DNA of 64,000 nucleotides from contig DASQOL010000018.1 of NCBI GenBank assembly GCA_035644475.1, forward strand, positions 15,495 through 79,494. Direction: 5' to 3'. The stretch's first letter is position 1, and every line of letters starts with the position of its first letter. Below, piece by piece: positions 690 to 47,068 of the stretch. The notes beneath the pieces were generated by a model, which saw only the letters and a list, made by a program, of their open reading frames with translations, did not search any database and had not been told where the DNA came from. The position numbers and the translations under genes are program-made. Source of the stretch: Gammaproteobacteria bacterium (GTDB taxonomy: Bacteria > Pseudomonadota > Gammaproteobacteria > Steroidobacterales > Rariloculaceae).

Positions 690-694
690 CCGCA

Positions 695-16229: not shown

Positions 16230-18689
16230 TCACTCATACCGCAGCGCGTGCACGGGGTGCGCGCGACCGGCCTTGAGCGACTGCACGGCGACCGTCGCAT
16301 AGGCTATCGCGAGCCCCGCGACGGCGGCGCCGAGGAACGGCAGCGGGCTCATCGCCGTGCGGTACGCGAACCCGTCGAGCCACTTGTCCATCGCGAAGTA
16401 CGCCCCCACGCACGCGAGCGGCGCCGCGATCAGCACGAGCACGACCGTCCGCTGCGCGAGCAGCATCACGATCTGGCTCGTGCGCGCGCCGAGCACCTTG
16501 CGCACGCCGATCTCGCGCGTGCGCTGCGCGGCGGTGAACGACGCGAGGCCGAACAGCCCGAGGCACGCGATGAAGATGCAGAGCCCCGCGAAGATCGCGA
16601 TCAGCCTCGTGAGCCGCGTGTCCGACAAGTACAGCTGGTCGAGCGAGTCGTCGAGGAACTTGAACTCGAAGGGATGCTCCGTATCGAACTTCCGCATCGT
16701 GTTGCGGATGTGGTCGATCGTGCCCTGCACGTCCTTACCCGAGATGTTCACCGCGAGGATCCGATTCTGGAACGGACGCTGCGGGGGCGGCACCTGGGCG
16801 AAGTTCTCGTTGATCCGGTAGACCGCGAACGGCGCGATCTCGTCGTGCACGGACCGGAAGTTGAAGTTCTTGACGACGCCGACCACGGCGCCCTTCTGCG
16901 CGCTCGGACCCAGCCCGATCTCGAAGCGCTTGCCGATAGGCTCCTTCCACCGCAGCATCTTCACGGCCGCCTCGTTCACCACGATCGCCGAGATACCGGC
17001 GCCGAGATCCTGTTCGTTCGGCGCGCGCCCCGCCAGCACCTGCATGCCCATCACGTCGAAGAACTCGGGTCCCACGCCCATGTGGATCAACGACGTCGAC
17101 TCGAAGACGCCGTCGTTGTTCTCCAGGTTCAGCACGTTGATGTTGAAGCCGCCGCCCATCATCGACGCGCTCCAAGACACGCCGAGCACGTTCGGATTCG
17201 TGAGCAGCTCGGTTCTGATCGCCTCGCTGCGCTCGACCACGTCGGCGCCGCGCATCGTGACGACCACCCGGTTCTCCTTCTCGAAGCCGAGCGACATCGA
17301 TGCCACGTAGCTCATCTGCCGCGCCATCAGCAGAGTGCTCGCGATCACGGCAATCGAGATCGTGAACTGCAGAAGCACGAGCGCTTCGCGCAGCCCGCTG
17401 TTGCCTGACCCGCCCTTCTTGCCACTCACGAGCGCGGATACCGGCACGATCGAGGACAAATAGAACGCCGGGTAGAGGCCCGCGCCGAGCCCGATCGCGA
17501 GCGCCAGACCCACGATCGAGGCCGCCACCCTGGCGGGCGAGCCCAGACCGCCCAAGGCGATCTGCTTGCCGAACAGGGTGTCCAGTGGCGTGAACGCGGA
17601 GGCGGCCTCGACGAGCAGCACGCCGAGCACCACGGCGATTCCGGCCAACAACACGGACTCCGCGAGGAACTGCGCCACGAGTGCCGTGCGCTTCGACCCC
17701 ATGATCTTGCGCATTCCGACCTCTTTAGCGCGCTTGCTGGCACGCGCCGTCGCCAGGTTCATGTAGTTGATGCCGGCCACGAGCAGTGTGAACACCGCGA
17801 CCGCGATGAAGCCGTAGATGTAATAGCGGTTGCCGGTCGAGATGTCGTTCGGCAGGTCGGAATAGAGATGGATTCGGTCGAGCGGCTGGATCCACGCGCG
17901 CCAACTTGCGTTGAGGCGCGCGCTGATGTCGCTCATGTTCCGGTCGAAGAACGCTTTGGACACGTCGGCGAACTTGGCCGCGTCGTAACCTTCGGGCATC
18001 AGCAGATATGTGAAGAGAGCCACGTTGTAGAGCCGGTTGCGCCGCTGGTTGATGTCGTCCGGCACGGTGAACTGCTGCTGCGTGGTGGAGAACAACACGT
18101 CGTATTTCAACGTCGTGTTCTCGGGTAGGTCGTCGAACACCAGCGTGATCTTGAACTCGGAGCCGTTCTCGATGTTGATCGTCTCGCCGAGCGGATTGCG
18201 GTCGCCGAAGTATTTCTGCGCGAACTTGCGGCTCACGGCCACCGACGTCGGCTCGACGAGCGCCGTTTTCGGATCGCCGTAGAGGATCTTGTGCGTGAAC
18301 ACCTCGAACACGTTGGGGTCGGTAGTGGACACGTTCTCCCAGTAGTAACCGACGTCACCGTGTTTGATGAACCGCTGGTTGCCGCCTCCACCGCCCTGGA
18401 AACGCACGAATGCCTGGACGTCGGCATTCTCGTCCTTGAGCATCGGTCCGAGCATCCCCGACGTGGCCGCGAACGTGTCGACCTTGCCGTTGATCGTAAA
18501 CTCGTTCACGACGCGGTAGATGCGCTTGTAGTTGACGTGGCTCTGGTCGTAGGTGAGCTCGCTGCGCAGATAGACGCCGAGGATCAGGCAGCACGCCACG
18601 GCGAGCGCGAGTCCGGCCACGTTGATCAACGCGTAAGCCTTGTCGCGGGCGAGGGTCCGCAACGCGACCTTGAGCACGCTCGTGTTCAT
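16230..18689 (-). CDS. Duplicated FtsX/MacB-type ABC transporter permease (orphan fifth paralog)
   Basis: 819 aa. N-terminus MNTSVLKVALRTLARDKAYALINVAGLALAV, two FtsX-type 4-TM modules each preceded by a large periplasmic domain, and a C-terminus ...HALRYE like the four tandem paralogs at 33450-43373. No ATPase gene is adjacent. Confidence 0.85.
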   Translation of the reverse strand: MNTSVLKVALRTLARDKAYALINVAGLALAVACCLILGVYLRSELTYDQSHVNYKRIYRVVNEFTINGKVDTFAATSGMLGPMLKDENADVQAFVRFQGGGGGNQRFIKHGDVGYYWENVSTTDPNVFEVFTHKILYGDPKTALVEPTSVAVSRKFAQKYFGDRNPLGETINIENGSEFKITLVFDDLPENTTLKYDVLFSTTQQQFTVPDDINQRRNRLYNVALFTYLLMPEGYDAAKFADVSKAFFDRNMSDISARLNASWRAWIQPLDRIHLYSDLPNDISTGNRYYIYGFIAVAVFTLLVAGINYMNLATARASKRAKEVGMRKIMGSKRTALVAQFLAESVLLAGIAVVLGVLLVEAASAFTPLDTLFGKQIALGGLGSPARVAASIVGLALAIGLGAGLYPAFYLSSIVPVSALVSGKKGGSGNSGLREALVLLQFTISIAVIASTLLMARQMSYVASMSLGFEKENRVVVTMRGADVVERSEAIRTELLTNPNVLGVSWSASMMGGGFNINVLNLENNDGVFESTSLIHMGVGPEFFDVMGMQVLAGRAPNEQDLGAGISAIVVNEAAVKMLRWKEPIGKRFEIGLGPSAQKGAVVGVVKNFNFRSVHDEIAPFAVYRINENFAQVPPPQRPFQNRILAVNISGKDVQGTIDHIRNTMRKFDTEHPFEFKFLDDSLDQLYLSDTRLTRLIAIFAGLCIFIACLGLFGLASFTAAQRTREIGVRKVLGARTSQIVMLLAQRTVVLVLIAAPLACVGAYFAMDKWLDGFAYRTAMSPLPFLGAAVAGLAIAYATVAVQSLKAGRAHPVHALRYE

Positions 18690-33449: not shown

Positions 33450-35903
33450 CTATTCGTAGCGCAACGAGTGCAGGGGCTTCGCGCTCGCCGCGCGCAGTGC
33501 GATGCCCGCCACGGTGAGCCACGCGATCGCGAACGTCACGAGCGCGCCGCCGGCGAAGACCAGCGGGCTCAAGTCGATCCGGTAGGCGAAATCCGCGAGC
33601 CAGCGCCGCATCGCCAGGTACGCGATCGGCCACGCCACCACGTTCGACAGCAGCACGAGCCTGCTGAACTCTGACGTGAGCAACGTCACCACGTCGACCG
33701 CCGAGCCGCCGAGCGTCTTGCGAATGCCGATCTCCTTGGTGCGGCGTTCCGTGGTGAACGACGCGAGGCCGAAGAGTCCGAGGCAGGCGACGAAGATCGC
33801 AAGCGCCGCGAACACGCCGAAGATCTGCATCTGCCGCTCGTCGTTGGCGTACAGCGCGGCGAACTCGTCGTCGAGGAATGTGCGCGCCACCGGCAGGTCG
33901 GGCTGTATTTGCGACCACGTGGCGTCGATGAACGCGAGCGTCTCGCGCAAGCGTTTGCCCGTCACGCGAATCGACGCGTCGCGGAAATACACGATCGGCA
34001 GCCTCCAGGAGTCCGCCGCGGCGAAATACACGAGCGGCTTCTGCGGCTCGCGCAGCGTCTCGAAATACGTGTTCTTGACGACCCCGACGATCGGCCCGCG
34101 CACCGATGCCGAAAAGTTTCCGGAGAAGTCCGTCTCGAACCACTTGCCGATCGCCTCGTCCGGCGTGAAACCGAGCTCGCGGGCCGCGAGCTCGTTGAGC
34201 ACGTAGGCGCCCGGGGTGTTCGCCACGCCGTTTTGGTTCGGCAGCGTGAAGCCGTCGGTTCCGTAGTCACGCGAGAACGTGCGCCCGGCGAGCAACTCGA
34301 TGCCGTACGTTTCGAAGAAGCCGTAGTCGACCCCGGTGGCCAACATCTGTCGGCCCGCGGGGTCCGAGCCCTCGGCGCGAATCAGGCGAGTGCCCGCGCC
34401 GCCCGGACGCATGCCGCCCTGGATCACGGCAGTGATCTCGGGGTTCTCGAGCATGCGGTTGCGCGCAGCCTCGAAGCCCGGGCCTAACCCCACGGTCGGC
34501 GAGCCCGAGAGATGCACTACCTGCGCCGTGTCGAAGCCACGGTCCACGTCGCGCGCGAACCGCGTTTGCAGGTAGATCGTGACGGTCGCAATCAGCAGAA
34601 CGATGGACACCGCGAACTGGACGACCACGAGCGTGCCGCGCAGGCGCTGGCCGCCACGTCCGCGCGTCGCATCGCCTTTCAGCACCTTCACGGGCTCGAA
34701 GGCCGACAGATAGAACGCCGGGTAGCTGCCGGCGAGCAAACCAACGGCGAGCGCCAGCACGGCCAGCGTCGCGAGCGTACCCACATTGCCGTAGTCGAGC
34801 TCGATCGCCGTCCCGGCGAACGTGTTGAAGGGCGGCAGCAGCACCTCCACGAGCGCCACTGCGACGAGCGTCGCGAGCAACGCGTACAACACTGCTTCGC
34901 CCAAGAACTGCGCGACGAGCTGGCCGCGCACCGCGCCGATGACCTTGCGCACACCGATCTCGCGTGCGCGCTGCGCCGCGCGAGCAGTCGAGAGGTTCAT
35001 GAAGTTCACGCAGGCGATCAGCAAGATGCTGAGCGCGATCGCCGCGAACGCCGTGACGGTGGTCAAGCTACCCGGCGGCGTGAGCTCCTGCACGCGGCCG
35101 TGCAGGTGGATGTCGGCGAGCTTGGTCGCGATCATCGTCGCGGCAGAGTCACCCGGCCGGCGGTGGCTCGCCACGAATTGCGGGAACCTGCGCTCGAGCG
35201 ACTCGATGCGCGCGCCGGGCTTCAGCCTCACATAGGTGTGGTAGAACCAGAAGCTCCAATTGCCGTCGTAGTTCCAGCCGAGGACCTTGTCGCCGACGTC
35301 GAACGACGCGATCACCGTTGCGCTCAGATGGGTGTCGCGCGGTAGGTCGCGGATCACGCCGGTCACGGTGAGCGGCCATTGTCCTTCGAGGACCAACGTT
35401 TGGCCTACCGGGTTCTCCGCGCCGAAGTATTTCGCCGCCGCGCCTTGCGTCAATACGACCGTGGACGGCTCGGTGAGCGCCCGTTTCGGGTCGCCCGCCA
35501 CCCAGTCCAGCGCGAATATGTCGAAGAAGCTCGCGTCCGCCCAGCGAAAACCATCCTCGTAGAAGGTATCGGCGCCGTGTCGCAGCCGCACGCTCTGCCG
35601 CGCGATCCGCGCCACCTGATCCACGTCGGCGGCGAAGTCGAGCTCGAGCTGCGGACCGGCCGGATAGAAGTTCGGAGCGGCGTGCATGGCCGCGCCGCCG
35701 TTGCCGGTGGGAACCTCGGCGGAGATCCGATAGATCCTGTCCGCGCCGGGGAAATGCTCGTCGAACGACAGCTCGTAGTGCACGTACAACAGGATCAGGA
35801 TCGCGCACGCGAGGCCGACCGCGAGGCCCGCGATGTTGAGCGTGGAGTAGAGCTTCTGGGTGACGAGCCGGCGAAAGCCGACCGCGAGATAGCTGCCGAT
35901 CAT
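33450..35903 (-). CDS. Duplicated FtsX/MacB-type ABC permease, tandem paralog 4
   Basis: Start ATG 35903 (MIGSYLAVGFRRLVTQKLYSTLNIAGLAVGLA), by alignment with the sibling N-termini and with an SD (AGGGAG). 817 aa, ending ...HSLRYE. The listed ORF 33450..37487 is an artefactual upstream extension. Confidence 0.85.
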   Translation of the reverse strand: MIGSYLAVGFRRLVTQKLYSTLNIAGLAVGLACAILILLYVHYELSFDEHFPGADRIYRISAEVPTGNGGAAMHAAPNFYPAGPQLELDFAADVDQVARIARQSVRLRHGADTFYEDGFRWADASFFDIFALDWVAGDPKRALTEPSTVVLTQGAAAKYFGAENPVGQTLVLEGQWPLTVTGVIRDLPRDTHLSATVIASFDVGDKVLGWNYDGNWSFWFYHTYVRLKPGARIESLERRFPQFVASHRRPGDSAATMIATKLADIHLHGRVQELTPPGSLTTVTAFAAIALSILLIACVNFMNLSTARAAQRAREIGVRKVIGAVRGQLVAQFLGEAVLYALLATLVAVALVEVLLPPFNTFAGTAIELDYGNVGTLATLAVLALAVGLLAGSYPAFYLSAFEPVKVLKGDATRGRGGQRLRGTLVVVQFAVSIVLLIATVTIYLQTRFARDVDRGFDTAQVVHLSGSPTVGLGPGFEAARNRMLENPEITAVIQGGMRPGGAGTRLIRAEGSDPAGRQMLATGVDYGFFETYGIELLAGRTFSRDYGTDGFTLPNQNGVANTPGAYVLNELAARELGFTPDEAIGKWFETDFSGNFSASVRGPIVGVVKNTYFETLREPQKPLVYFAAADSWRLPIVYFRDASIRVTGKRLRETLAFIDATWSQIQPDLPVARTFLDDEFAALYANDERQMQIFGVFAALAIFVACLGLFGLASFTTERRTKEIGIRKTLGGSAVDVVTLLTSEFSRLVLLSNVVAWPIAYLAMRRWLADFAYRIDLSPLVFAGGALVTFAIAWLTVAGIALRAASAKPLHSLRYE

Positions 35904-35923
35904 TGGTTCGAGCTCCCTGTAAG

Positions 35924-38362
35924 TCATTCGTAGCGCAAGGCGCGAGCGGGTTTCGTGCTCGCGGCCCGCGCCGCGACGCCGCCCACCGTGATGCAGGCGA
36001 TCGCGAGCGCGGCGAGCGCGCTGCCGACGAAGATCCACGGGCTCATATCCGCGCGGTAGGCGAACGACGACAGCCAGCGCTGCATTGCGATGTACGCGAC
36101 CGGCCACGCGACGAGATTCGCCACGAGCACGAGCCGCCCGAACTCGCCGCAGAACATCAGCACGATGTCGCCCACACCGCCGCCGATCGTCTTGCGGATG
36201 CCGATCTCCTTGGTGCGCCGCTCGGTGGTGAAGGACGCGAGGCCGAAGAGGCCCAAGCACGCGATGCCGATCGCGAGCAAGGCGAAGAACGTGAACATCT
36301 CGCCCTGGCGCTGCTCCGTGGCGTACAGCGCCTCGAAGTCGGCGTCGAGAAAGTGCCGCGCGATCGGCCGGTCGGGCATGAATTTGGACCAGACGGCGTC
36401 GATGTCCGCGAGCGTCGCGGCAAGGTTGCGGCCCGTGACTTTGAGCGACGCCTGGTCCAAAGGCTGGAAGCCCAAGCCGTCGGGCACGAGCATGTAGACC
36501 GTCGGCTCGATCGCGCTCCGGATGGACTCGAAGTGGACGTCTTTCACGACCCCGACGATCGGTGCGCGAACGGCGGGGCTGTCCGGCCCAAGATACGAGA
36601 CGCTGAGCCACTTGCTCGTCGCCTCCTCCGGCGTCCAGCCGTAGCGACGGGCGAGGCTCTCGCCGATCACGTAGCTGCCGGGGCGCGCGCCCCCCGGCGC
36701 CGTCGCGAGCGCCGGCCTGTCGGCGGCGCGTTGCTCGTCGAAAACGCGGCCGGCGACGGCTTCGATGCCGTAGAGCTCGAAGAAACCGAAGTCCACAGCG
36801 AGATCCGTGATGCCGCTGCCCGCACCCTCGTGGCCTTCGGCGACGACGTAGGCCGCATTCGTGTTCTCCATGCCGGGCACGAGATTCGAGGCCGTTACGG
36901 CCGCGACCTCGGAATTCGCGAGCCACTCCTGCTTCATCGCTTCCCATTGCGTGCCGAGGCCGCCGGTCCAGGACCCCGTGACCACGACGATTCGCTCCTT
37001 GTCGTAGCCGAGATCGATGTCGCGCGCGAACCGGGTTTGCTCGAAAACAACCCCGGTCGCGATCAAGAGCGCGATCGAGATCGCGAATTGCAGCACCACG
37101 AGCCCGCGGCGGAACGCCGCCGCGCCGCCGCCGCGGGTCGCATCGCCCTTGAGCACGCGGCCGGGCTCGAACGCGGCGAGGTAGAACGCCGGATAGCTGC
37201 CCGCGAGAAGCCCGGTAACGAAGGTGAGAGCGACCAGCCCCACGATCGCGCCCGGGCTGTCGAGATAGTGAAACGCGATGTTCGTTCCCAGGAACGCGTT
37301 GAACGCCGGCAGCGCGACCTCGACGATCGCCATCGCGAGCAGCAGCGCGACGCCGGCGATGAGCACCGACTCCGCGAGGAACTGCACCACGATCTGCCTG
37401 CGGTCGGCGCCGACGACCTTGCGTACGCCGATTTCCTTCGCGCGCTGCGTCGCGCGCGCGGTAGCGAGGTTCATGAAGTTGATGCAAGCGAGCAGCAGGA
37501 TGAACACGGCCACCGCGGCGAACGTGCGGACCGTGCTCGCGCTGCCCGGCACGCTCATCTCGTTCTCCTTGTGCGATTTCAGGTGGATGTCGGCGACCTT
37601 GAAAATGTCGAGCCGCGTGTAGCGGCTCGAGTCCTTCTCGAAACGGCGCTCGAAGAAGTCGTCCGAGCCCTTCCGGATCTCGTCAGGGTTCGCACCGGGG
37701 CGCAGCAAAGCGTACGTGTAAAACGCGTTCGCGCCCCAATTCGGCGCGGGCGGCGGCATCTGCATGAGCAGCGAGAACTTGAGATGCGTGTCGTCCTTGA
37801 GGTCCTCGATGACGCCTGTGACGTCCAACGGCGTCGTGCCGTCGAGCAGCATCGTCTGCCCGACGGGGTCGGCGTCGCCGAAGTACTTCCGGGCGATGCT
37901 CCGAGTCAGCACGACCGTATTCGGCTTCGCGAGCGCGGACTTCGGGTCGCCACGCAGCCAACGGAAGTCGAAGACCTCGAGAATCTCCTTGTCGGCCGAC
38001 GCGGCGTCGCCCTCGAGGTACAGCGAGCCGTCCGGCGCACGGAACGTCGCGCCGTCGCAGCATCGAATCCGTGCGATCGTTTCGATGATCGGGAAATCCT
38101 CCTTGAGCACGTCGGCAGCCGGCGCCGCGAGCGACGCGAGATAGGCCGCTTTGCTAATCTCGGTCGGCAAGAAGTCGCGCGAGATTCGGACGATCCGATC
38201 GGCGTTCGTCCAGCCCCGGTCGTAGACGAGCTCGTGGCGCACGAACAGCGAGATCAGGACGAAGCACGCGAGGCCGACCGAGAGCCCCACGACGTTGATC
38301 AGCGTGTAGAGCTTCTGCTTGACCAGATGCTGGAATGCGACGAGCACATAGTTCTTCAGCAC
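35924..38362 (-). CDS. Duplicated FtsX/MacB-type ABC permease, tandem paralog 3
   Basis: 812 aa. (GTG)MLKNYVLVAFQHLVKQKLYTLINVVGLSVGLA ... ARALRYE. SD GAGGAG lies 9 nt upstream. Confidence 0.85.
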   Translation of the reverse strand: MLKNYVLVAFQHLVKQKLYTLINVVGLSVGLACFVLISLFVRHELVYDRGWTNADRIVRISRDFLPTEISKAAYLASLAAPAADVLKEDFPIIETIARIRCCDGATFRAPDGSLYLEGDAASADKEILEVFDFRWLRGDPKSALAKPNTVVLTRSIARKYFGDADPVGQTMLLDGTTPLDVTGVIEDLKDDTHLKFSLLMQMPPPAPNWGANAFYTYALLRPGANPDEIRKGSDDFFERRFEKDSSRYTRLDIFKVADIHLKSHKENEMSVPGSASTVRTFAAVAVFILLLACINFMNLATARATQRAKEIGVRKVVGADRRQIVVQFLAESVLIAGVALLLAMAIVEVALPAFNAFLGTNIAFHYLDSPGAIVGLVALTFVTGLLAGSYPAFYLAAFEPGRVLKGDATRGGGAAAFRRGLVVLQFAISIALLIATGVVFEQTRFARDIDLGYDKERIVVVTGSWTGGLGTQWEAMKQEWLANSEVAAVTASNLVPGMENTNAAYVVAEGHEGAGSGITDLAVDFGFFELYGIEAVAGRVFDEQRAADRPALATAPGGARPGSYVIGESLARRYGWTPEEATSKWLSVSYLGPDSPAVRAPIVGVVKDVHFESIRSAIEPTVYMLVPDGLGFQPLDQASLKVTGRNLAATLADIDAVWSKFMPDRPIARHFLDADFEALYATEQRQGEMFTFFALLAIGIACLGLFGLASFTTERRTKEIGIRKTIGGGVGDIVLMFCGEFGRLVLVANLVAWPVAYIAMQRWLSSFAYRADMSPWIFVGSALAALAIACITVGGVAARAASTKPARALRYE

Positions 38363-38492
38363 GACTCGAGACTCCTCGACGCGCGACGACGACGCGTCCC
38401 ATCACAATCCCTCCGCGGAGGGATTTCGCACCGAGTCGGTGCAGAAGCTTCCGCGGAAACACGGACCCCGTCTTCTTCGTTCGCCGGCATGG

Positions 38493-40928
38493 TCACTCGT
38501 ACCGCAACGATTGAATCGGCTTCGCCGCGGCCGCGCGGGCCGCGACGACGCCCACCGTGAGCCACGCAACCGCGAGCACGAGCAGCCCGCCGCCGACGAA
38601 CAGCGGCGCGCCGAGATCGATGCGATACGCGAACTGGTCGAGCCAGCGGCGCATCACGAGATACGCGACCGGCCAGGCGACGGCGTTCGCAAGCACCGCC
38701 AGACGGCTAAGCTCGCCGGTGAACAAGCGCACGATGTCCACGACCGACCCGCCCATGACCTTGCGGATCCCAATTTCCTTGGTGCGCTGCTCGGTGGTCA
38801 GAGCCGCGAGCCCGAACAGGCCGAGGCTCGCCACGAGAATCGCTAGAGACGAGCAAACGCCCAGCATCTGCGCCTGCTTGCGCTCGCCGCGATAGAACCT
38901 ATCGAAGTCGTCGTCCAGGAATCGACGGGCGATCGGCCGCTCCGGCACGGCGCGCGCCCACACGGCGTCGATGCGCGCGAGCGTGCCCGCGACATCGCCG
39001 CCGGTGAGCTTGATCGATGCCGTGTTGAAATACGTCTGCGGCAATATCAACATCATCGGCCCCACCGGATCGCGTAGCGGCGCGAAGTGAACGTCGTCGA
39101 TCACCCCGACGATGCGACGCGCGGCTTGGTCGGCGGACGGACCCATCGCCGGCGCCGTGAGATCCGCTCCCCAAAATGCTTTGCCGACGGCCTCGTCCGG
39201 CGTCCACCCGAGGGCTCGCGCCGTGGCCACGTTCACGATCGCCCCCCGCGTAGCGCGGAGGTCCCTCGGGCCGGCGGCATCGAGCGAATCGGCGCCGAAG
39301 TCGCTCGAGAAGCCTCGCCCCGCCAACACCTCGATGCCGTAGGTCGACAGGAAGTCGGAGTCGACCGCGACGATGCTAGTGTTCACGGGCAGGGCCTCTG
39401 GGTCGCCGCCCTCGCCGTGGATCAAGTCCCTCATGGGATCGCCGCCGGGCGCGGCGCTCGATCCGCTGACGGCCGCGACGCCGGACTCCGCGAGCCACTC
39501 CCGCTTCAGGACCTCCCACCGCTGCGCGAGCAGGCCGGCGCGGCCGTCGCTCACGACGACGATCTGCGTCTTGTCGAATCCGACGTCGAACGTCCGCATG
39601 AACATGACCTGGCGATAAACCACCGCGGTCGCGATCGTGAGCGCTATCGAGATTGCAAACTGCGCGCCGACCAGCACGCGGCGCACCGTCGCAGCACCGC
39701 GACCGCGAGTGAGATCGCCCTTCAGCACCTTTGCGGGCTCGAACGCCGCCACGTAGAACGCGGGGAACATGCCGGCCGCGAGGCCGACGAGCACGGTAAC
39801 CGCGGCCAGAGCGCCGAGCACCACGGGGTCGCGACGGTAGTCGAGCTCGAGGTCCATTTCGAGAAACGCCCCTACGAGAGGCAGCAGCAGCTCGACGGCC
39901 GCGAGCGCGAGCAGAGCGGCCGCGGCGGTGAGCAGCAGCGACTCGCCCAAGAACTGCACGACGAGCCGCGGGCGCCCGACGCCGAGCGTCTTGCGCACGC
40001 CGACCTCCTTCGCACGCCGGCGCGCCGAGGCGGTCGCGAGATTCACGAAATTGATGCAGGCAATCGCTAGGATCAGCGCTGCGATGACGCCGCTCGCGTA
40101 CACCGTTACGGCGCTGCCCTTCGGCCGCATGTCGTCGTAGCGAGACTCGGCGAGGTGGACCGCCATCAGCGGCTCCGGCACGAAGTCTTGGACCGCGCCG
40201 AGCCCGTCCGGCATGTGATGCACGAGGAAGTCGTGCGCCCCGGCTTGCAAGCGCCGGACGCTCGCGCCGGGGCGCATCAGCACGTACGTGTGAACGACCC
40301 CGTTGTTCCCGTCGAGCACCCGCAGCGGCACGAGCATGTCGAAGCGCAGATGCGTGTTGTCCGGGAGGTCACGGATCACGCCGGTGACGGTGAATGACTG
40401 CGCGAGCTCGTTCGACTCGAGAGTACGCCCGAGCGCCGCGGTCTCGCCGAAGTAGCGGCGCGCCGTGCTCGCAGCCAGCACGATCGAGTGCGGATCCCGC
40501 AGCGCCGTGGCGGGACTGCCTTCGAGCCAATCGAACTCGAAAACATCGAGGAACGCGTCGTCTATCGCGGCGAGCCACCCCCCGACTTGCATTTGCCCGT
40601 CGATCGTCACGAGCGCGTTGCTCGAGAGGGACTGCAGACGCGCCGCCGTTTCGACCTCCGCGAACTCGGCCGGCAGCAGCGGGACGACGTCCACCGGCAT
40701 CGTGGCGACGGGCAGCGCCTCGCCGTTCGGCAACTTGAAGGACCTCGCCAACCGGTATGTGCGGTCCGCCTTCACGAAAAAACGGTCGTAGCTGAGCTCG
40801 TGCCGCACGTACAACCCGAGCAGCATCGCGGCCGCGAGGCCGACGGCGAGGCCGAGCACGTTGATCGTGGAATATAGCCTTTGCGCTACCAGGTGGCGCA
40901 GTGCAATTGCTAGATGGCTTCGGAACAT
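38493..40928 (-). CDS. Duplicated FtsX/MacB-type ABC permease, tandem paralog 2
   Basis: 811 aa. MFRSHLAIALRHLVAQRLYSTINVLGLAVGLA ... IQSLRYE. Confidence 0.85.
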   Translation of the reverse strand: MFRSHLAIALRHLVAQRLYSTINVLGLAVGLAAAMLLGLYVRHELSYDRFFVKADRTYRLARSFKLPNGEALPVATMPVDVVPLLPAEFAEVETAARLQSLSSNALVTIDGQMQVGGWLAAIDDAFLDVFEFDWLEGSPATALRDPHSIVLAASTARRYFGETAALGRTLESNELAQSFTVTGVIRDLPDNTHLRFDMLVPLRVLDGNNGVVHTYVLMRPGASVRRLQAGAHDFLVHHMPDGLGAVQDFVPEPLMAVHLAESRYDDMRPKGSAVTVYASGVIAALILAIACINFVNLATASARRRAKEVGVRKTLGVGRPRLVVQFLGESLLLTAAAALLALAAVELLLPLVGAFLEMDLELDYRRDPVVLGALAAVTVLVGLAAGMFPAFYVAAFEPAKVLKGDLTRGRGAATVRRVLVGAQFAISIALTIATAVVYRQVMFMRTFDVGFDKTQIVVVSDGRAGLLAQRWEVLKREWLAESGVAAVSGSSAAPGGDPMRDLIHGEGGDPEALPVNTSIVAVDSDFLSTYGIEVLAGRGFSSDFGADSLDAAGPRDLRATRGAIVNVATARALGWTPDEAVGKAFWGADLTAPAMGPSADQAARRIVGVIDDVHFAPLRDPVGPMMLILPQTYFNTASIKLTGGDVAGTLARIDAVWARAVPERPIARRFLDDDFDRFYRGERKQAQMLGVCSSLAILVASLGLFGLAALTTEQRTKEIGIRKVMGGSVVDIVRLFTGELSRLAVLANAVAWPVAYLVMRRWLDQFAYRIDLGAPLFVGGGLLVLAVAWLTVGVVAARAAAAKPIQSLRYE

Positions 40929-40937
40929 CGCCGCCGT

Positions 40938-43373
40938 CTACTCGAAACGCAACGATTGGATGGGCTTCGCAGCCGCCGCGCGCGCCGCGACTGCACCGAC
41001 CGTCGCGAACGCAACCGCGAGCGCTACCGCCGCGCCGCCGACAAACGCGAGCGGGCTCATCTCGACGCGATACACGAAGCCCGCCAGCCAGCGCTGCATC
41101 AAGAAGTAGGCCACAGGCCACGCTACGACGTTCGCGAGCAGCACGAGCTTGCCGAAGTCCGCCGTGAACAAGCTCACGACGTCCCAGACGGTACCGCCGA
41201 GCGTTTTGCGGATGCCGATCTCCTTGACGCGGCGCTCGGTCGAGAACCACGCAAGGCCGAGCAAGCCCAAGCACGCGATCGCGATCGCGAGCCCAGAGAA
41301 GAACGTCAGCAGCTGCGCCTGCCGCTCCTCGGACCGATACAGCGCGTCGAAGTCGTCGTCGAGGAAGCGCCGCACGACCGGCCGGTCGGGAACGTGCTCG
41401 CGCCAGATCGCGTCGATGCGCGCGAGCGTCGCGGTTAAATCCTCACCCGTGACGCGCACGGATATCGTGTCGACGAAGCCGTAGAGCTGGCTCGCGGGGT
41501 CGCCGCCGAAAATGTAGATCATCGGCCGCACCGGCAGCGCGACCGACTCGAAGTAGGTGTCGCGCACCACGCCGAGCACGCGGGCCGGCGCCCAGCCGGC
41601 GAACAGGCCCACGTCCACCGGCTGCTCGGCCGCCTCGGCCGGCGACCAGCCGAGCATCCGCGCGGCCGACTCGTTGAGCACGACGGCCGGCGCAGCCGTC
41701 GGCGGCGTCGCGAGAAACGCGCCGGGGGCGACCTCCTGCGAGAACACTCGGCCGCCGAGCGTCTCGATTCGATACGTCTCGAAGAAGCCGTAGTCGACAG
41801 CCATGAACTGGATGCGGCTGAACGCCTCGGCACCCTGGTGGCGAACTTGGACCCGGTTGTCGTCCCAAGTAAACGGCGTGTAGTGCGACGCGGTGACACC
41901 GACGATGCCCGGCGTGCGCGCGAGCTCGTTCCGCAGCGCTTCCCAGTCGACGCCGCGAAGACCGGTTTGCGGCGGCGACTCGAGCACCACGATCTCGTTT
42001 CTGTCGAAGCCCAGATCGAGGCTTCGTGCGAAGCGGTCCTGCTGATAGATCACCGCCGTGCCGATCAGGAGCGCGATCGCGATGGCGAACTGCACCACCA
42101 CCAGCACGTTGCGGAACGCCGCGCCGGCGCGGCCGCGCGACACTTCGCCCTTGAGCACGCGCGCCGGCTCGAACGACGACAAGAAAAAAGCCGGATAGCT
42201 GCCCGCGAGCACGCCGACGGCAAGCGCGAGCAGGGCCAACTGCAATGCAAAGCCGCGCGGCCCGAAATACTCGAGCGTGAGATCGACGCCCAAGAACGTG
42301 TCGAACACCGGCAGCGCAATCTCCACGAGCACCGTGGCCGCGAGCGTCGCGAGCGCCGCCATGCCGATCGACTCGCCGAGGAACTGCCCGATCAGCTGGA
42401 GCCGCACCGCGCCGAGCGACTTGCGCACCCCCACTTCTCGCGCACGCTTCGCCGAGCGCGCGGTGGACAGGTTCATGAAGTTGATGCACGCGATCAGCAG
42501 AATCAGCGCGGCTACGGCTGCGAAGCTTGAGACGGACGCGTAGCTCGACGTCGCCTTCCATTCCTCGTCGCGAGTCGAGCGCATGTGGATGTCGCGCACG
42601 TTCATGATCGTCATGCCAGACGCAGCGCTCGCGTCCGGCGCGATCCGCCGGCTCATGAACTCCGGAATCCGCGCCTCGATCGCGCCGACGTCGGCGCCCG
42701 CGGGCATCAGGAAGTAGGTGTGGAAATCCGTATTGTTGTTCCACTGACTGAGCGCCGCGTCGGGCAGCGCCTTCATCGACCCGAGCGCGTCGAAGCTCAG
42801 ATGCGTGTTCGGCGGCAGGTCGCGGATCACGCCGGTGACCGTAACGACCGTGCGGCTGTCGATCTGCATCGTCTGGCCTAGCGCGGGCGTGGCGCCGAAG
42901 TACTTCTTCGCAAGCGACTCGGTGAGCACGATCGACGCGGGATCGGTAAGCGCGCGCTTCGGGTCGCCGGCGAGCCAGCCGAAGTCGAAGATGTCGAACA
43001 GCGAGTTGTCCGCCCAACGAAACCCGCTCTCGTAGAACGCGCGGTCGTCGTGGGTGAGCAGGGAGAAGCCGCCGAACACCCTCGCCGCGGTCTCGATCTC
43101 GGGAAAATCCTCGACCAGCGCGGGGGCGACAGGCGCATTATTCGAGGCGGGCACGCGGTTCGGTGCGCCCTCGCGCGCATAGTAGTCGCGCGAGATCCGA
43201 TAGATCCGGTCCGCCTTCGCCCAGAACGAGTCGTAACCGAGCTCGTGGCGCACGAACAGGGCGATCAGCACGACACTCGCGAGGCCGATCGCGAGACCGG
43301 CCACGTTGATCAGCGAATAGACCTTGTTCGTCGCCAGCTGGCGCAGCGCGACCGACAGATAGCTCTTAAGCAT
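40938..43373 (-). CDS. Duplicated FtsX/MacB-type ABC permease, tandem paralog 1
   Basis: 811 aa. MLKSYLSVALRQLATNKVYSLINVAGLAIGLA ... IQSLRFE. The start overlaps the ATPase stop by 8 nt (ATGCTTAA). Confidence 0.85.
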   Translation of the reverse strand: MLKSYLSVALRQLATNKVYSLINVAGLAIGLASVVLIALFVRHELGYDSFWAKADRIYRISRDYYAREGAPNRVPASNNAPVAPALVEDFPEIETAARVFGGFSLLTHDDRAFYESGFRWADNSLFDIFDFGWLAGDPKRALTDPASIVLTESLAKKYFGATPALGQTMQIDSRTVVTVTGVIRDLPPNTHLSFDALGSMKALPDAALSQWNNNTDFHTYFLMPAGADVGAIEARIPEFMSRRIAPDASAASGMTIMNVRDIHMRSTRDEEWKATSSYASVSSFAAVAALILLIACINFMNLSTARSAKRAREVGVRKSLGAVRLQLIGQFLGESIGMAALATLAATVLVEIALPVFDTFLGVDLTLEYFGPRGFALQLALLALAVGVLAGSYPAFFLSSFEPARVLKGEVSRGRAGAAFRNVLVVVQFAIAIALLIGTAVIYQQDRFARSLDLGFDRNEIVVLESPPQTGLRGVDWEALRNELARTPGIVGVTASHYTPFTWDDNRVQVRHQGAEAFSRIQFMAVDYGFFETYRIETLGGRVFSQEVAPGAFLATPPTAAPAVVLNESAARMLGWSPAEAAEQPVDVGLFAGWAPARVLGVVRDTYFESVALPVRPMIYIFGGDPASQLYGFVDTISVRVTGEDLTATLARIDAIWREHVPDRPVVRRFLDDDFDALYRSEERQAQLLTFFSGLAIAIACLGLLGLAWFSTERRVKEIGIRKTLGGTVWDVVSLFTADFGKLVLLANVVAWPVAYFLMQRWLAGFVYRVEMSPLAFVGGAAVALAVAFATVGAVAARAAAAKPIQSLRFE

Positions 43374-44070
43374 TGCCCGCTCTCCGCATCTGGCCGATGT
43401 TCTCGGTAACGACGCGCCCGTCGAGCATGTTCACGATTCGGCGCGCGTACTCGGCGTGGCTCCGCGAGTGCGTGACCATGATGACGGTCGTGCCCTCCTC
43501 GTTGAGCTTGACGAGCATGTTCATGACCTCCTCGCCGTTCGTCGTGTCGAGATTGCCCGTGGGCTCGTCGGCGAGTATCAGCTTCGGGGCCACGACCAGC
43601 GCACGCGCCACGGCGACGCGCTGCTGCTGACCGCCGGACAATTGCGTCGGCACATGGTTGCGGCGCGCGCTGATGCCGACCCTTTCCAGCACCGCGTCCA
43701 CGCGCCGTTTGCGTTCGGCCGCGGGCAACCGTTGATAGACGAGCGGCAGCTCCACGTTCGCGAACACCGTTAGCTCGTCGATGAGATTGAAGCTCTGGAA
43801 GATGAAGCCGATGTTGCGCTTGCGCAGCTGCGCGAGCTTGCGCTCCGGATACTTGGCGACGTCCTCGTCCATGAAGAAGTAGCGGCCGCTCGACGGGTTG
43901 TCGAGCATCCCGATGATGTTGAGCAGCGTCGACTTGCCGCAGCCCGACGGGCCCATGATCGCGGTGAACTCGCCCGCCGCGATCCCGAGGTCGACGTCGT
44001 TGAGCGCCGCGGTCTCGACCTCGGTGGTGCGAAACACCTTCGACAAGCTCTGCATGACCAGCATCGGCAT
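43366..44070 (-). CDS. ABC transporter ATP-binding protein, MacB/LolD family
   Basis: Walker A GPSGCGKST, Q-loop FIFQSFNL, signature LSGGQQQRVAVARAL, Walker B LILADEPTGNLD, H-loop VTHS. ATG 44064 has better SD spacing (GAGAGG) than ATG 44070. Confidence 0.92.
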   Translation of the reverse strand: MPMLVMQSLSKVFRTTEVETAALNDVDLGIAAGEFTAIMGPSGCGKSTLLNIIGMLDNPSSGRYFFMDEDVAKYPERKLAQLRKRNIGFIFQSFNLIDELTVFANVELPLVYQRLPAAERKRRVDAVLERVGISARRNHVPTQLSGGQQQRVAVARALVVAPKLILADEPTGNLDTTNGEEVMNMLVKLNEEGTTVIMVTHSRSHAEYARRIVNMLDGRVVTENIGQMRRAGNA

Positions 44071-44207
44071 CCTCTCGCGCCACGCGCGCCGCTAACGTTA
44101 ACCGCTCGGCTCGTCCGAACGCGCGGCCCGCCCGCCGAGCCGGGACTCTGGGGAGACTCGAGGCTCGCGACTATCGACGAGACGAGCGGCCCGCGCGCCC
44201 GTTACAT

Positions 44208-44223
44208 AGCAACTCGCGGGCCA
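44208..44223 (-). promoter_or_regulatory. Sigma-54 (-24/-12) promoter for the ABC operon
   Basis: Minus strand reads TTGGCCCGCGAGTTGCT (TGGCCC-N5-TTGCT). It has one core mismatch and correct GG-N10-GC spacing, about 140 nt upstream of the ATPase start. Confidence 0.6.
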
Positions 44224-44312
44224 ACCCGCGAATGCCTGCGAACTCAATGAGTTGGGATTCCCGCTGGGCCCGGTAGGTGTCCGCAGATAGCACACTCAGT
44301 GTCCGCCGGCGT

Positions 44313-44342
44313 ACACTCGAACACACTCGAACGCACTCGAAT
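44313..44342. promoter_or_regulatory. Three tandem 10-bp direct repeats (ACACTCGAAC, ACACTCGAAC, GCACTCGAAT); candidate activator-binding or operator site
   Basis: The repeats are exactly helical-phased and lie in the divergent intergenic region. A degenerate fourth copy, CACACTCAGT, is at 44291-44300. They sit 90-120 bp upstream of the 44208-44223 sigma-54 promoter and 14 nt upstream of the regulator ATG. Confidence 0.5.
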
Positions 44343-44355
44343 CCAAGTGCCTGAC

Positions 44356-45729
44356 ATGACGCGCTCCGGCCGAATTCTCGTCATCGACGACGACGTGGGC
44401 GTGCTCACCGCCGCCCGCCTGCTGCTCAAGCGGCACTTCGCCGTGGTGCAGACCGAGTCGGACCCGACCAAGCTGCCGGACCTCCTCGACGCCGGCTTCG
44501 ACGTCGTTCTGCTCGACATGAACTTCGCGCGCGGCGCCGACAGCGGCGCGGAAGGTCTCGCGTGGCTCGCCAAGATCCTCGAGATCGATCCCGGCATCGT
44601 CGTGGTATTGATGACCGCGTACGGCGACGTGTCGACGGCCGTCAACGCCATCAAGGCGGGCGCCACCGACTTCGTGCTGAAGCCCTGGCAGAACGAGAAG
44701 CTCGTGGCCACCGTTACCGCCGCGCTGAGCCTGCGCGACTCGCGCGACGAGGTCGGGCGGCTGCGCTCCCGCGAGCGCGAGCTCGTCGACGCGGCGAGCG
44801 GCGCGGTGCAGCCCGTGATCGGCAACGCGGCCCCGATGCGCCACGTGTTCGAGATGGTGCGCCGCGCGGCGCCCACCGACGCCAACGTTCTCATCCTGGG
44901 CGAGAGCGGTGTCGGCAAGGAGCTCGTCGCGCGCCTGCTCCACCAACAGTCGCGGCGCGCGGCCGAGGTCTTCATGTCGGTCGACCTGGGCTCCGTGAGC
45001 CAAACGTTGTTCGAGAGCGAGCTGTTCGGCCACCGTCGCGGCGCGTTCACCGACGCGCGCGAGGAGCGCGCCGGCCGCTTCCAGGCCGCGTCCCGCGGCA
45101 CGCTGTTCCTCGACGAGATCGGTAATCTGCCCCTGCATCTGCAGGGCAAGCTCCTCTCCGCGCTCGAGCAGCGCACCGTGACGCCGCTCGGCAGCGACCG
45201 CGCGTTGCCGATCGACGTGCGGCTCGTGAGCGCCACCAACAAGCCGCTTGCCGCGCTCGCGGGCACAGGCGAGTTCCGCGAGGACCTGCTCTACCGAATC
45301 AACACGGTGGAGATTCGGGTCCCGCCGCTCCGCGAGCGCGTCGAGGACATCGCGCCGCTGTTCGACCACTTCGTCGAGATCTACGCGCGCAAGTACAACC
45401 TGCCGCCGAAGCGCCTGTCACGCGTCGGGCTCAAGCGGCTCGAGGCGTACGCGTGGCCCGGCAACGTGCGCGAGCTGCGGCACGCGGTCGAGCGCGCGCT
45501 CATCATGAGCGACGCACCGATGCTCGACGCACACGACTTCCTGCTCGCGCCCGAGCGCCGCAGCGGCGGCGACGGGCTCAAGCTCGACGACTACAACCTC
45601 GAGACGGTCGAGAACCGCGTGATCCAGGCGGCGCTCGAAAAGCACGGCGGCAACGTGAGCCGCGCCGCGCGCGAGCTCGGCATCACGCGTGCGTCGTTGT
45701 ATCGGCGCATGGAAAAGTATGGGCTATAA
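44356..45729 (+). CDS. Sigma-54-dependent response regulator (NtrC family: REC, AAA+, Fis-HTH)
   Basis: REC ILVIDDDVGVL...VVLLDMNF. AAA+ Walker A GESGVGKE, sigma-54 contact loop GAFTDA, RVPPLRER. HTH GGNVSRAARELGITRASLYRRMEKYGL. ATG 44356 is preferred over the listed GTG 44299. Confidence 0.92.
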   Translation: MTRSGRILVIDDDVGVLTAARLLLKRHFAVVQTESDPTKLPDLLDAGFDVVLLDMNFARGADSGAEGLAWLAKILEIDPGIVVVLMTAYGDVSTAVNAIKAGATDFVLKPWQNEKLVATVTAALSLRDSRDEVGRLRSRERELVDAASGAVQPVIGNAAPMRHVFEMVRRAAPTDANVLILGESGVGKELVARLLHQQSRRAAEVFMSVDLGSVSQTLFESELFGHRRGAFTDAREERAGRFQAASRGTLFLDEIGNLPLHLQGKLLSALEQRTVTPLGSDRALPIDVRLVSATNKPLAALAGTGEFREDLLYRINTVEIRVPPLRERVEDIAPLFDHFVEIYARKYNLPPKRLSRVGLKRLEAYAWPGNVRELRHAVERALIMSDAPMLDAHDFLLAPERRSGGDGLKLDDYNLETVENRVIQAALEKHGGNVSRAARELGITRASLYRRMEKYGL

Positions 45730-47068
45730 CCGCTTTGCGCTCACCGTGACGGCTCAGGTCGCGCTGATACTCGGCGTGTGCGTCGCGTTTGCCTATCTCG
45801 CGGTTACGACGACCTACTATGCTACTTTGCTGCTGCTGGCCGTGGCGCTCACGGTGCAAGTGGCGTCGCTCGTGCGCTACGTGCAACGAACCAACCGCGA
45901 GCTCGCGCGCTTCATGCTCGCGATTCGCCATTCGGACTTCTCGCAGAGCTTCGCCTTCGCCCCAACGGGGACGTCGTTCGCCGAGCTCGCGGCCGCGTTC
46001 GAGGAGATCCTGCAGCGATTTCGCGCGGCGCGCACGGCGAAGGAGGAGCAGGCGAGCTACCTCGACACCTTCGTCCAGCACGTGCCGGTCGCCGTGATCG
46101 CGATCGACGAGTCCGGGCGCATCGACCAGTTCAACCACGCGGCGCGGCGTCTGTTCGGCGCCGGCGCGCCGCGGCTGCTCCAAGACTTCGCGGGCTTCGG
46201 CCCCGAATTCCCGCGGCGGCTCCTCGAGCTCGAGCCGGGCCGCACGGAGCTCATCAAAGTGACGCGCGACGGCACGCCGCTGCAGCTCAACGTCCTCGCC
46301 ACCGAGCTCAAGATCGCCGGCCGCACGCACAAGATCGTGTCGCTGCTCGACATCCACGGCGAGCTCGAGGCGCGCGAGGTGGAGGCGTGGCAGAACCTGA
46401 TCCGCGTGCTCACCCACGAGATCATGAATTCCGCCACGCCGATCTCCTCACTCGCCGCGACGGCGGCGGAGCTGCTTGCCGAGGCCCGCACCCATCCGGG
46501 CCAAACGAGCGCGATCGACGACGCGCAGGACGCGGTGGAGACGATCGCGAAGCGCAGCAGCGGCCTCGTGCACTTCGTGGACAGCTACCGCCGGCTCACG
46601 CGGCTGCCGAAGCCGTCGCTGCGGCCGTGCGCGGCGGCCGAGCTGCTCGACCGTGTGGCGCAGCTGATGCAACCCGAGCTCGCGCGCCGGGGCATCGCGC
46701 TCGCGCAGTCCGTGACGCCGCGCAATCTCGAGATCAACGTGGACGCCGAGCTGCTGGAGCAGGTATTGATCAACCTGCTGCGCAACTCGATCGACGCGCT
46801 AGGCGAGACCGCGCGGCCGCAGATCCGGCTTGCGGCGGAGATCGACACCGCGGGTCACGCGGTCATCGCGGTGCACGACAACGGTCAGGGCATGGACGAG
46901 CAGGTCCGCCAGAACATCTTCGTACCGTTCTTCACCACCAAGCGCCACGGCACCGGCGTGGGCTTGAGTCTCGTGCGGCAGATCATGCGCTCGCACCGCG
47001 GCAGCGTCGGCGTGCAATCCGCGCCCGGCGAGGGCACGGCCGTGCGCCTCAGCTTCGGCACCCGCTAA
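45719..47068 (+). CDS. Sensor histidine kinase (2 TM, PAS-like, HisKA, HATPase_c)
   Basis: ATG 45719 overlaps the regulator stop by 11 nt. H-box LTHEIMNSATPISSL, N-box LINLLRNSIDAL, G1 VHDNGQGM, G2 GTGVGLSLVRQI. Confidence 0.9.
   Translation: MGYNRFALTVTAQVALILGVCVAFAYLAVTTTYYATLLLLAVALTVQVASLVRYVQRTNRELARFMLAIRHSDFSQSFAFAPTGTSFAELAAAFEEILQRFRAARTAKEEQASYLDTFVQHVPVAVIAIDESGRIDQFNHAARRLFGAGAPRLLQDFAGFGPEFPRRLLELEPGRTELIKVTRDGTPLQLNVLATELKIAGRTHKIVSLLDIHGELEAREVEAWQNLIRVLTHEIMNSATPISSLAATAAELLAEARTHPGQTSAIDDAQDAVETIAKRSSGLVHFVDSYRRLTRLPKPSLRPCAAAELLDRVAQLMQPELARRGIALAQSVTPRNLEINVDAELLEQVLINLLRNSIDALGETARPQIRLAAEIDTAGHAVIAVHDNGQGMDEQVRQNIFVPFFTTKRHGTGVGLSLVRQIMRSHRGSVGVQSAPGEGTAVRLSFGTR

Follow-up and report, generated by a model that had tools for sequence, protein, structure and literature searches.

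A minus-strand gene cluster was analysed in a 64,000-nt stretch of the gammaproteobacterial contig DASQOL010000018.1 (GCA_035644475.1; hereafter the window, within which all positions are numbered). It consists of five tightly packed reading frames, from 33450 to 44070, for one ATPase of the ATP-binding cassette (ABC) type followed by four paralogous permeases, P1 to P4, and lies divergent to genes for a sigma-54 activator and a sensor histidine kinase. The locus is rather likely to be an inducible type VII ABC system, in which an ATPase dimer would serve any of the four single-chain permeases at a 2:1 ratio, act on substrates from the periplasmic side and thereby remove noxious compounds. This reading is carried by the gene content, the domain architecture, the age and intactness of the paralogs, and the conservation of synteny and of regulatory motifs, from which we infer co-transcription, the direction of transport, the substrate class and a 2:1 complex for each paralog.

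All reading frames that a first-pass annotation of this DNA had proposed were found at the positions given there (Table 1), and its gaps of −8, 9, 130 and 20 nt, in the order ATPase-P1-P2-P3-P4, were obtained again. The mechanical open reading frame (ORF) of P4 extends much further upstream; its start was set at 35903 because the ATG there is in register with the three remaining permease starts. The ATPase and the four permeases are probably made as one transcript. An internal regulatory element in the 130-nt gap between P2 and P3 was considered and dropped: the gap is no more stably folded than its shuffled versions (z −0.74), it holds a hairpin but no T-tract terminator, and a simple sigma-70 consensus scan gave no match in it. 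Scans for sigma-70 promoters and terminators across the locus gave counts at chance level. Since no match to an Rfam family in the window attained the gathering score, the 137-nt 5′ region appears to hold no known leader RNA or riboswitch.

Architecture of the ATPase and the fused permeases

The ATPase matches Pfam ABC_tran (E 2.9e-35) and has intact Walker A (residue 40), signature (144), Walker B (165) and H-loop (199) motifs. Its top matches among NCBIfam models and chains of the Protein Data Bank (PDB) are DarD, MacB, LolD, FtsE and 5xu1_A. All NCBIfam matches fall below their cut-offs, the best being DarD (277.6 bits vs. 375); MacB scores 236 bits, LolD 212.7 (cut-off 307.75) and YbbA 190.5 (cut-off 336). 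The nearest solved chain, 5xu1_A (E 8e-66), belongs to a MacAB-like transporter of Streptococcus pneumoniae, and the MacB structures 5lj9, 5nik and 5gko match with E of about 1e-55.

Each permease shows the Pfam order MacB_PCD-FtsX-MacB_PCD-FtsX, i.e., two stretches of each domain, and FtsX (PF02687) lies above its gathering score in all four (whole-protein E 2.9e-19 to 2.9e-23). Hydropathy gives a first transmembrane (TM) helix, a domain of ~230 residues, TM2–4, TM5, a domain of ~235 residues and TM6–8, with TM4 and TM5 linked by short cytoplasmic helices only. Pfam, hydropathy and an AlphaFold2 model agree with the fused double FtsX module, with eight TM helices and two periplasmic domains, that had been proposed at first pass. 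The best NCBIfam model for P1–P4, aligned end to end, is ADOP (TIGR03434), with 288.5, 253.7, 291.8 and 305.7 bits, respectively; because scores of 254–306 bits stand against a cut-off of 622.3, the permeases form a sister subfamily rather than ADOP proper. The DarB model gives 96–102 bits against 700, with model positions 8–763 of 777 aligned. The sequence traits of type VII ABC systems are present, namely two FtsX domains, two MacB_PCD domains between TM1 and TM2 and between TM5 and TM6, and an ATPase of the MacB/LolD/FtsE type. On sequence grounds, the operon genes are placed in the duplicated-permease branch of this superfamily, as members of no named equivalog.

An AlphaFold2 model of P1 was built from a 61-sequence alignment (mean predicted local distance difference test score, pLDDT, 86.6; predicted template-modelling score, pTM, 0.82). 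It contains eight long helices and two mixed alpha/beta periplasmic domains that are Porter/Sabre-like. Short helices at residues 307–319 (TM2/3) and 716–724 (TM6/7) are located at the positions of the coupling helices of LolC/E and YbbP. A Foldseek comparison of this model with the PDB placed Escherichia coli YbbP first (9ge6_A, E 2.5e-19, TM-score 0.46), followed by MacB, 3is6, Spr0694/5, LolC/E, BceB and HrtB; the periplasmic-domain structure 3is6 from Porphyromonas gingivalis reached a TM-score of 0.77–0.81. A PDB search with the permease sequence retrieved only 3is6 and weak MacB matches, and YbbP gave no match at E ≤0.01, its resemblance being one of fold only. YbbAP has been solved as two ATPases on one pseudo-symmetric permease, and YbbP has ten TM helices (PMC12646458); a 2018 review of the MacB family gives fused forms only with two linker helices (PMC5985334). 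The 8-TM fused form is the commonest one in the databases searched, and the PDB sequence and Foldseek searches yielded no solved representative of it.

Table 1. Features of the ABC locus and its regulatory region, with positions in the 64,000-nt window
Feature	Position	Strand	Remarks
ATPase, MacB/LolD/DarD-type ABC	43366..44070	-	234 aa; first operon gene; stop overlaps P1 start by 8 nt
Permease P1	40938..43373	-	811 aa; single-chain double MacB_PCD-FtsX, 8 TM helices
Permease P2	38493..40928	-	811 aa; most divergent paralog, 44-45% identity to other three
Permease P3	35924..38362	-	812 aa; GTG start; 130-nt gap before P3
Permease P4	33450..35903	-	817 aa; last operon gene
Sigma-54 -24/-12 element TGGCCCgcgagTTGCT	44208..44223	-	137 nt upstream of ATPase ATG
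Two tandem palindromes, probable activator sites, GTGTACGCCGGCGGACAC and GTGTGCTATCTGCGGACAC	44316..44299, 44295..44277		Centred ~80-100 nt upstream of -24 element
NtrC-family sigma-54 enhancer-binding response regulator	44356..45729	+	Divergent from operon
Sensor histidine kinase	45719..47068 (ORF 45689-47068)	+	Start overlaps regulator stop
Orphan fifth fused permease	16230..18689	-	819 aa, 34% identity to P1; outside operon

Related loci, the missing adaptor and the age of the paralogs

The ATPase of the window had no exact match in the assembly collection, and the comparison was built on homologs. A scan of one genome per species returned at least 600 related loci, and the best 80 were mapped for homologs of the permease, ATPase, regulator, kinase and adaptor. 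At least two tandem fused permeases are present in 45 of these 80 loci and at least four in 25, and the longest runs reach at least eight. A sigma-54 regulator accompanies 12 of the 80, which come from Ignavibacteria, several families of Bacteroidota, Sphingomonas and Agaribacter. All 12 share one layout, a histidine kinase and an enhancer-binding protein divergent from a membrane fusion protein (MFP, the adaptor), an ATPase and one to five permeases. The alphaproteobacterial Niveispirillum irakense and strain AAP38 have an adaptor and an ATPase with two and five permeases, respectively; the stretch of N. irakense that was covered showed no regulator genes. The permease family is large: at least 7,988 of 8,000 scored clusters at 90% identity had E ≤1e-30, an exhaustive search gave 19,670 clusters at 50% identity with E ≤1e-30, and nearly all of the best matches listed are single full-length proteins of about 780–890 aa.

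The first-pass annotation had regarded the locus as not a characterised architecture. Read as a claim of an unusual layout, this did not hold, as the arrangement recurs in Gammaproteobacteria, Alphaproteobacteria, Bacteroidota and Ignavibacteria, and both the arrays and the sigma-54 link are in print; operons built in this way are common in several bacterial phyla, and the architecture is not new. Indeed, a 2025 survey found predicted sigma-54 promoters to be enriched at genes for COG0577 FtsX-like permeases in Gammaproteobacteria, Opitutia and Bacteroidia, and claims the first link of sigma-54 to this family (PMC12316311). No experimental work on a sigma-54-controlled array of such permeases was found in the literature searched.

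The closest relatives of the locus are from uncultured Gammaproteobacteria. Loci L001/L005 and L002 (61–63% identity to P1) consist of a kinase, a regulator, a MacA-like adaptor of 432–436 aa, an ATPase and four permeases, and they are considered orthologous to the locus studied here because flanking DUF456, holin_4_2 and ApbA genes are shared with the window (47143–49097). The closer relatives L004 (72%), L085 (81%) and L086 (78%) have, as in the window, a kinase and a regulator divergent from an ATPase and permeases, with no adaptor. Locus L003 (79%) has four permeases with small genes inserted between them. These insertions, on the opposite strand at 2816–3382 and 6221–7226 of that locus, are a Uma2-family gene and a toxin-antitoxin-like pair of a nucleotidyltransferase and a small partner; the permeases are intact. 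Two genes for small heat-shock proteins of the HSP20 family follow the fourth permease on the same strand in L001 (20493–21341) and L002 (20008–20846), and none is found at the position after P4 in the window.

As the first-pass annotation had stated, no adaptor, TolC or substrate-binding protein was found: tblastn with the adaptor of a related locus gave nothing in the 64-kb window, and a Pfam scan of ~37 window ORFs revealed no HlyD/MFP, TolC/OEP or substrate-binding family. The adaptor is the first operon gene in L001, L002 and all 12 regulator-bearing representative loci. Since it is present in all of these more distant lineages, it was most likely lost in the clade of the window; the missing adaptor is thus most likely a clade-specific loss and not a property of the system.

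The same distribution suggests that the ancestral machine was tripartite, and the locus might still encode a tripartite efflux pump resembling MacAB-TolC, with a MacA-like adaptor and a TolC-like channel encoded outside the 64-kb window. The periplasmic domains, which are still MacB_PCD-like, would suit such a pump. However, the locus has no adaptor in the window, L004, L085 and L086, which are independent members of the clade, four in all, and this argues that the adaptor-less locus is a stable state, and the searches of the window described above point the same way. We therefore hold a tripartite pump to be unlikely.

An all-vs-all comparison of the permeases gave pairwise protein identities of 44.2–49.1%, and DNA identities of 64–75% in patches only. 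These values rule out a recent duplication or an assembly artefact, the objection named at first pass; P1–P4 are old paralogs. Their termini, which had been called near-identical, are conserved, but the term was an overstatement, since mean identity is 57% over the 45 N-terminal residues and 63% in the last FtsX module. Among the four permeases, the periplasmic domains are 37–41% identical, whereas the membrane modules are 56–63% identical.

In a neighbour-joining tree that included permeases of the orthologous and of more distant loci, P1 groups with the position-1 genes of L001–L004, P4 with the position-4 genes of L001–L003, and P3 with L003_3, L002_2 and L001_3, while P2 groups only with L003_2 and L004_2 from the adaptor-less, closer relatives. 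Positional orthologs of P1, P3 and P4 are kept in relatives down to ~60% identity. The alphaproteobacterial, Bacteroidota and Ignavibacteria arrays each cluster apart, which indicates repeated lineage-specific expansion.

Ratios of nonsynonymous to synonymous substitution rates (dN/dS), computed by NG86 and to be read as rough estimates in a 68% G+C genome, were 0.25 for P1, 0.36 for P2, 0.40 for P3 and 0.28 for P4 against their L003 orthologs, with no stop codons, and 0.25–0.43 over all pairs computed. Membrane modules showed values of 0.20–0.26 and periplasmic domains 0.23–0.56, a contrast that is clearest in P2 and P3; the periplasmic domains of P2 evolve fastest (0.43–0.56). All four proteins are full length and retain the invariant residues of the family. 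P1–P4 are old, intact paralogs under purifying selection, and all four have orthologs in relatives, a check that the first-pass annotation had proposed.

It could be argued that the array is largely redundant or decaying, with one permease that matters and the rest drifting duplicates. The number of tandem permeases indeed varies between lineages from one to at least eight, P2 has no ortholog in L001 and L002 besides evolving fastest, and the array of L003 is broken by the toxin-antitoxin-like insertions. Yet, the full-length, stop-free state of all four genes with their invariant residues, the dN/dS values of 0.25–0.40 against orthologs, and the retention of P1, P3 and P4 as positional orthologs make decay very improbable.

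The orphan fifth permease has a glyoxalase-family gene on one side and an LtrA gene on the other, with no adjacent ATPase, adaptor or regulator, and would have to borrow an ATPase. In the tree, it groups with sequences of the Bacteroidota/Ignavibacteria type and not with the operon paralogs.

The two-component pair and its probable target sites

The regulator contains the Pfam domains Response_reg (3.4e-17), Sigma54_activat (1e-61), AAA_lid_14 and HTH_8 (8.6e-18), and all NCBIfam equivalogs score below cut-off, the best being PrsR (366 bits vs. 502.6). Its sigma-54 contact loop reads GAFTDA, as compared with the canonical GAFTGA, i.e., F and T are kept and the fifth residue is D. The loop, or its versions GAYTDA and GSFTDA, is present in 12 of 15 orthologous regulators from four lineages (L001–L084). 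This conservation across phyla points to a subfamily trait and not to decay, and the variant may be usable as a marker of the regulator subfamily. The regulators of the regulator-bearing loci are 47–61% identical to that of the window.

Pfam detects PAS and HATPase_c domains in the kinase; the phospho-accepting dimerisation domain is presumed, having escaped the Pfam scan. Its N-terminus has two TM helices connected by a loop of a few residues, and the orthologous kinases share this layout, together with a conserved TNREL.RF motif just after TM2. The start of the kinase is likely the ATG at 45719, since its orthologs begin at the equivalent Met.

The candidate promoter TGGCCCgcgagTTGCT reads TGGCCC-N5-TTGCT and agrees with the sigma-54 consensus (TGGCAC-N5-TTGCW) at 10 of 11 positions; 17 sites score at least 9/11 over both strands of the 64-kb window. 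Among the orthologous loci, L004 has the −24/−12 element unchanged, L001 has a 10/11 and L002 a 9/11 version, and further sites precede the operon in L024 (11/11), L071 and L073 (10/11 each) and L009 (9/11). A four-locus alignment (window, L004, L001 and L002) shows a conserved block upstream of the promoter that corresponds to the two palindromes: GTGTACGCCGGCGGACAC is almost fully invariant, and GTGTGCTATCTGCGGACAC retains its GTGT and CGGAC half-sites. The pattern TGTNC-N6/7-GNACA matches only these two palindromes in the 64-kb window. Of 16 orthologous regulatory regions, 12 hold it, among them those of Ignavibacteria, Bacteroidota, Sphingomonas and Agaribacter loci, with 18 hits against 0.18 expected from shuffles, although this enrichment is partly post hoc because the pattern was refined after the sequences had been seen. 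The palindromes are often paired, ~21 bp apart, and a looser TGT-N10/11-ACA is present in 14 of 15 related loci.

A direct, conserved link between the two-component system and the operon is well supported, since the promoter, the palindromes, the GAFTDA regulators and the kinase layout are all conserved. The sigma-54/two-component reading given at first pass is strengthened by the recurrence of the −24/−12 element and the palindromes in orthologous loci, and the operon is predicted to depend on RpoN.

Just upstream of the regulator start codon, three tandem 10-bp direct repeats, TTCGAGTG(C/T)G, are located at 44314–44341 (minus strand). The triple repeat is found in the window only; L004, L001 and L002 hold a single copy that merges into the first palindrome. 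It was dropped as a candidate activator site, because it is not conserved and the octamer is no more frequent in the window than expected by chance (a count of 5 is reached in 8 of 100 shuffles).

A perfect sigma-54 consensus, TGGCACatgtcTTGCA (11/11; 33406–33421, minus strand), lies 29 nt after the P4 stop and precedes a right-handed beta-helix/NosD-like ORF (31667–33415, minus strand). The real start of this ORF is probably a GTG near 33369, because TGGCACatgtcTTGCA overlaps the listed ATG; the product from that GTG would have a RLAALLLLAAAAGA stretch that resembles a signal peptide. Upstream of TGGCACatgtcTTGCA, the palindromes seen at the ABC promoter are missing, so this promoter is probably served by another activator. 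The beta-helix gene is absent at that position in L003, and a paralogous beta-helix ORF is located at 28382–29869 (minus strand).

Further sigma-54-like sites were observed at a distance from the operon. An exopolysaccharide-type cluster (78–12812) comprises genes for a group 1 glycosyltransferase, an asparagine-synthase-like protein, a MurJ-like flippase, a ParA-like P-loop protein and a Poly_export/SLBB (Wza-like) protein (10497–11102, minus strand). The site TGGCATGGATATTGCT (10/11), at 11174 on the minus strand, lies upstream of the last gene, near a GTGT-N12-ACAC palindrome (11187–11206), which is followed by a protein kinase/Calx-beta ORF (11256–12812, plus strand). An 11/11 site, TGGCACGGCCCTTGCT, at 14126 (minus strand), lies upstream of a Cu/Zn superoxide dismutase gene (13328–14002, minus strand), ~124 nt from its listed start, and faces away from a GSDH/NHL beta-propeller gene (14140–15549, plus strand).

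Proposed mechanism and relation to known systems

In the mechanism that we favour, the kinase would perceive its signal either within or at the membrane or, by means of the PAS domain, in the cytoplasm, as its two TM helices leave almost no external loop. That it senses inside the membrane, perhaps by way of the permeases as Bce modules do, is speculative. The kinase would phosphorylate the NtrC-type activator, which would bind the two tandem TGTNC-N6/7-GNACA palindromes centred ~80–100 nt upstream and drive RpoN-dependent transcription from the −24/−12 element (44223..44208). Each permease is envisaged as a pseudo-dimer, 2 × (TM1, periplasmic domain, TM2–4), with one coupling helix per half. 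Because the permease is a single-chain pseudo-dimer, one permease and an ATPase dimer would form a complete 2:1 machine, as in YbbAP, and the operon would yield four alternative machines with one shared motor. ATP binding and hydrolysis in the cytoplasm would be transmitted through stalk helices to the periplasmic domains, i.e., by mechanotransmission as in MacB, LolCDE and YbbAP, and these domains would act on substrates in the periplasm or in the outer leaflet of the inner membrane. Because these domains are where the paralogs differ most, their substrates or partners probably differ as well. With the dedicated adaptor lost in the clade, the machines would work adaptor-free, as LolCDE and YbbAP do, or with an adaptor encoded elsewhere. 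By analogy, their role is probably the signal-induced removal of noxious membrane-active or periplasm-acting peptides, lipopeptides and hydrophobic xenobiotics.

The locus resembles MacAB-TolC in its FtsX-type 4-TM unit, in the MacB periplasmic core domain between TM1 and TM2, in its MacB-type ATPase, in the presumed mechanotransmission, and in the MacA-like adaptor that is the first gene in its more distant relatives. However, the MacB ATPase is fused to one homodimerising 4-TM unit, whereas here a separate 234-aa ATPase accompanies two fused units; the four paralogous permeases, the lack of an adaptor in the clade and the sigma-54/two-component control differ as well. With LolCDE, the locus shares a separate LolD-like ATPase, two non-identical FtsX/MacB_PCD units per complex and the lack of an adaptor. 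Yet, LolC and LolE are separate 4-TM proteins, whereas the units here are fused, appear to be sigma-54-inducible and lie in a context that is not essential-gene-like.

In the literature searched, DarBCD of Photorhabdus (NF038008/NF038007) was the one system of this permease type that has been characterised in part. Its full-length alignment implies the same fused double-FtsX layout, and DarD is the best model for the ATPase. DarBCD differs in that it includes the adaptor DarC and lies in a cluster for a peptide that is made on ribosomes and modified after translation (RiPP); here there is no such cluster, four permeases are present, and the scores are far below the cut-offs. Deletion of darB, darC or darD lowers the darobactin titre 2–4 fold (PMC8442675). 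ADOP proteins (TIGR03434), known from Acidobacteria and from island 43 of Psychroflexus torquis, are likewise duplicated MacB_PCD-FtsX permeases in large paralog families and tandem arrays. ADOP genes are defined as orphans with no adjacent ATPase; in contrast, P1–P4 follow an ATPase, and only the fifth paralog is an orphan. Ten ADOP paralogs have been described from P. torquis, in tandem arrays with ATP-binding transporter genes and as highly translated, with no function assigned (PMC3914696). PA4064/PA4065 of Pseudomonas aeruginosa was rejected as a characterised analogue, because it has two separate permease subunits and is Zur-regulated.

Two further systems bear on an alternative to efflux, namely that the permeases are extractors, which draw lipoproteins or hydrophobic compounds from the inner membrane and pass them to a periplasmic partner as LolCDE and YbbAP-TesA do, or co-sensors, which signal their own activity to the loop-less kinase as BceAB does to BceS. 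YbbAP-TesA of E. coli (PDB 9GE6-9GE8) shares with the locus a separate ATPase and a single-chain, pseudo-symmetric permease with two periplasmic domains; it was solved as a 2:1 complex that is adaptor-free and partnered with a periplasmic enzyme (PMC12646458), and YbbP is the best full-length structural match to P1. Moreover, the Psychroflexus array adjoins a gene for a TesA-like thioesterase (PMC3914696). The BceAB-BceRS modules of Firmicutes likewise have a single-chain permease, a 2:1 ATPase and a coupled, almost loop-less kinase with two TM helices, and the kinase studied here and all its orthologs show this intramembrane-sensing layout, with two TM helices, a tiny loop and a juxtamembrane motif. 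However, YbbP has 10 TM helices (two of them linker helices), is 13% identical and is encoded by a single gene and not an array, and no TesA-like partner is present at the locus. BceB also has 10 TM helices, as compared with the eight predicted here, has one extracellular domain and is the single permease of its module. The regulator of Bce modules is of the OmpR type and sigma-70 dependent, whereas that of the locus is NtrC-type. In the relatives examined, the operon is not accompanied by any conserved gene for a periplasmic partner, and contact between kinase and permease is conjectural. An extractor or co-sensor role is thus doubtful, and we return to removal of noxious compounds as the preferred reading.

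Several points weigh against this preference. No experiment on any member of the subfamily, and no experimentally known substrate for it, was found in the literature searched. The substrate class is proposed by analogy with distant relatives, at 13–18% identity to solved permeases, and tasks other than efflux are also performed by type VII systems (LolCDE, FtsEX and YbbAP-TesA). What such a system does usually depends on a partner protein, and none is identifiable here; likewise, expulsion across the outer membrane is unexplained without an adaptor and an outer-membrane channel. Concerning regulation, co-transcription across the 130-nt gap is only assumed, the GAFTDA loop deviates from GAFTGA, the palindrome statistic is in part post hoc, and no rpoN gene was found in the 64-kb window.

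A bolder extension, which we put forward as a long shot, is that such arrays form a combinatorial envelope defence. A shared ATPase dimer would drive interchangeable permeases whose periplasmic domains, diversifying fast in each lineage, catch different toxic peptides, lipids or xenobiotics; the loop-less kinase would sense the flux load of the permeases and drive the GAFTDA activator at TGTNC-N6/7-GNACA sites; and the clade of the window would have switched from tripartite efflux with an adaptor to adaptor-free extraction from the inner membrane.

Fused double-FtsX permeases make up ~19,700 clusters at 50% identity, often in arrays of four to at least eight, with no substrate assigned in the literature searched. 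The present locus is a compact and clean example, in which a single motor is combined with four old paralogs, each under purifying selection, and nothing in it is new in kind. It is of value chiefly because the regulatory module can now be described with precision, i.e., a two-TM loop-less kinase, a GAFTDA activator, two TGTNC-N6/7-GNACA sites ~21 bp apart and a −24/−12 element, together with cultured carriers (Mucilaginibacter phyllosphaerae, Belliella marina, Sphingomonas colocasiae and Agaribacter flavus), where ordinary genetics could reveal the inducer and the substrates. Finally, the probable loss of the adaptor in one gammaproteobacterial clade represents a natural experiment on the need for tripartite assembly.

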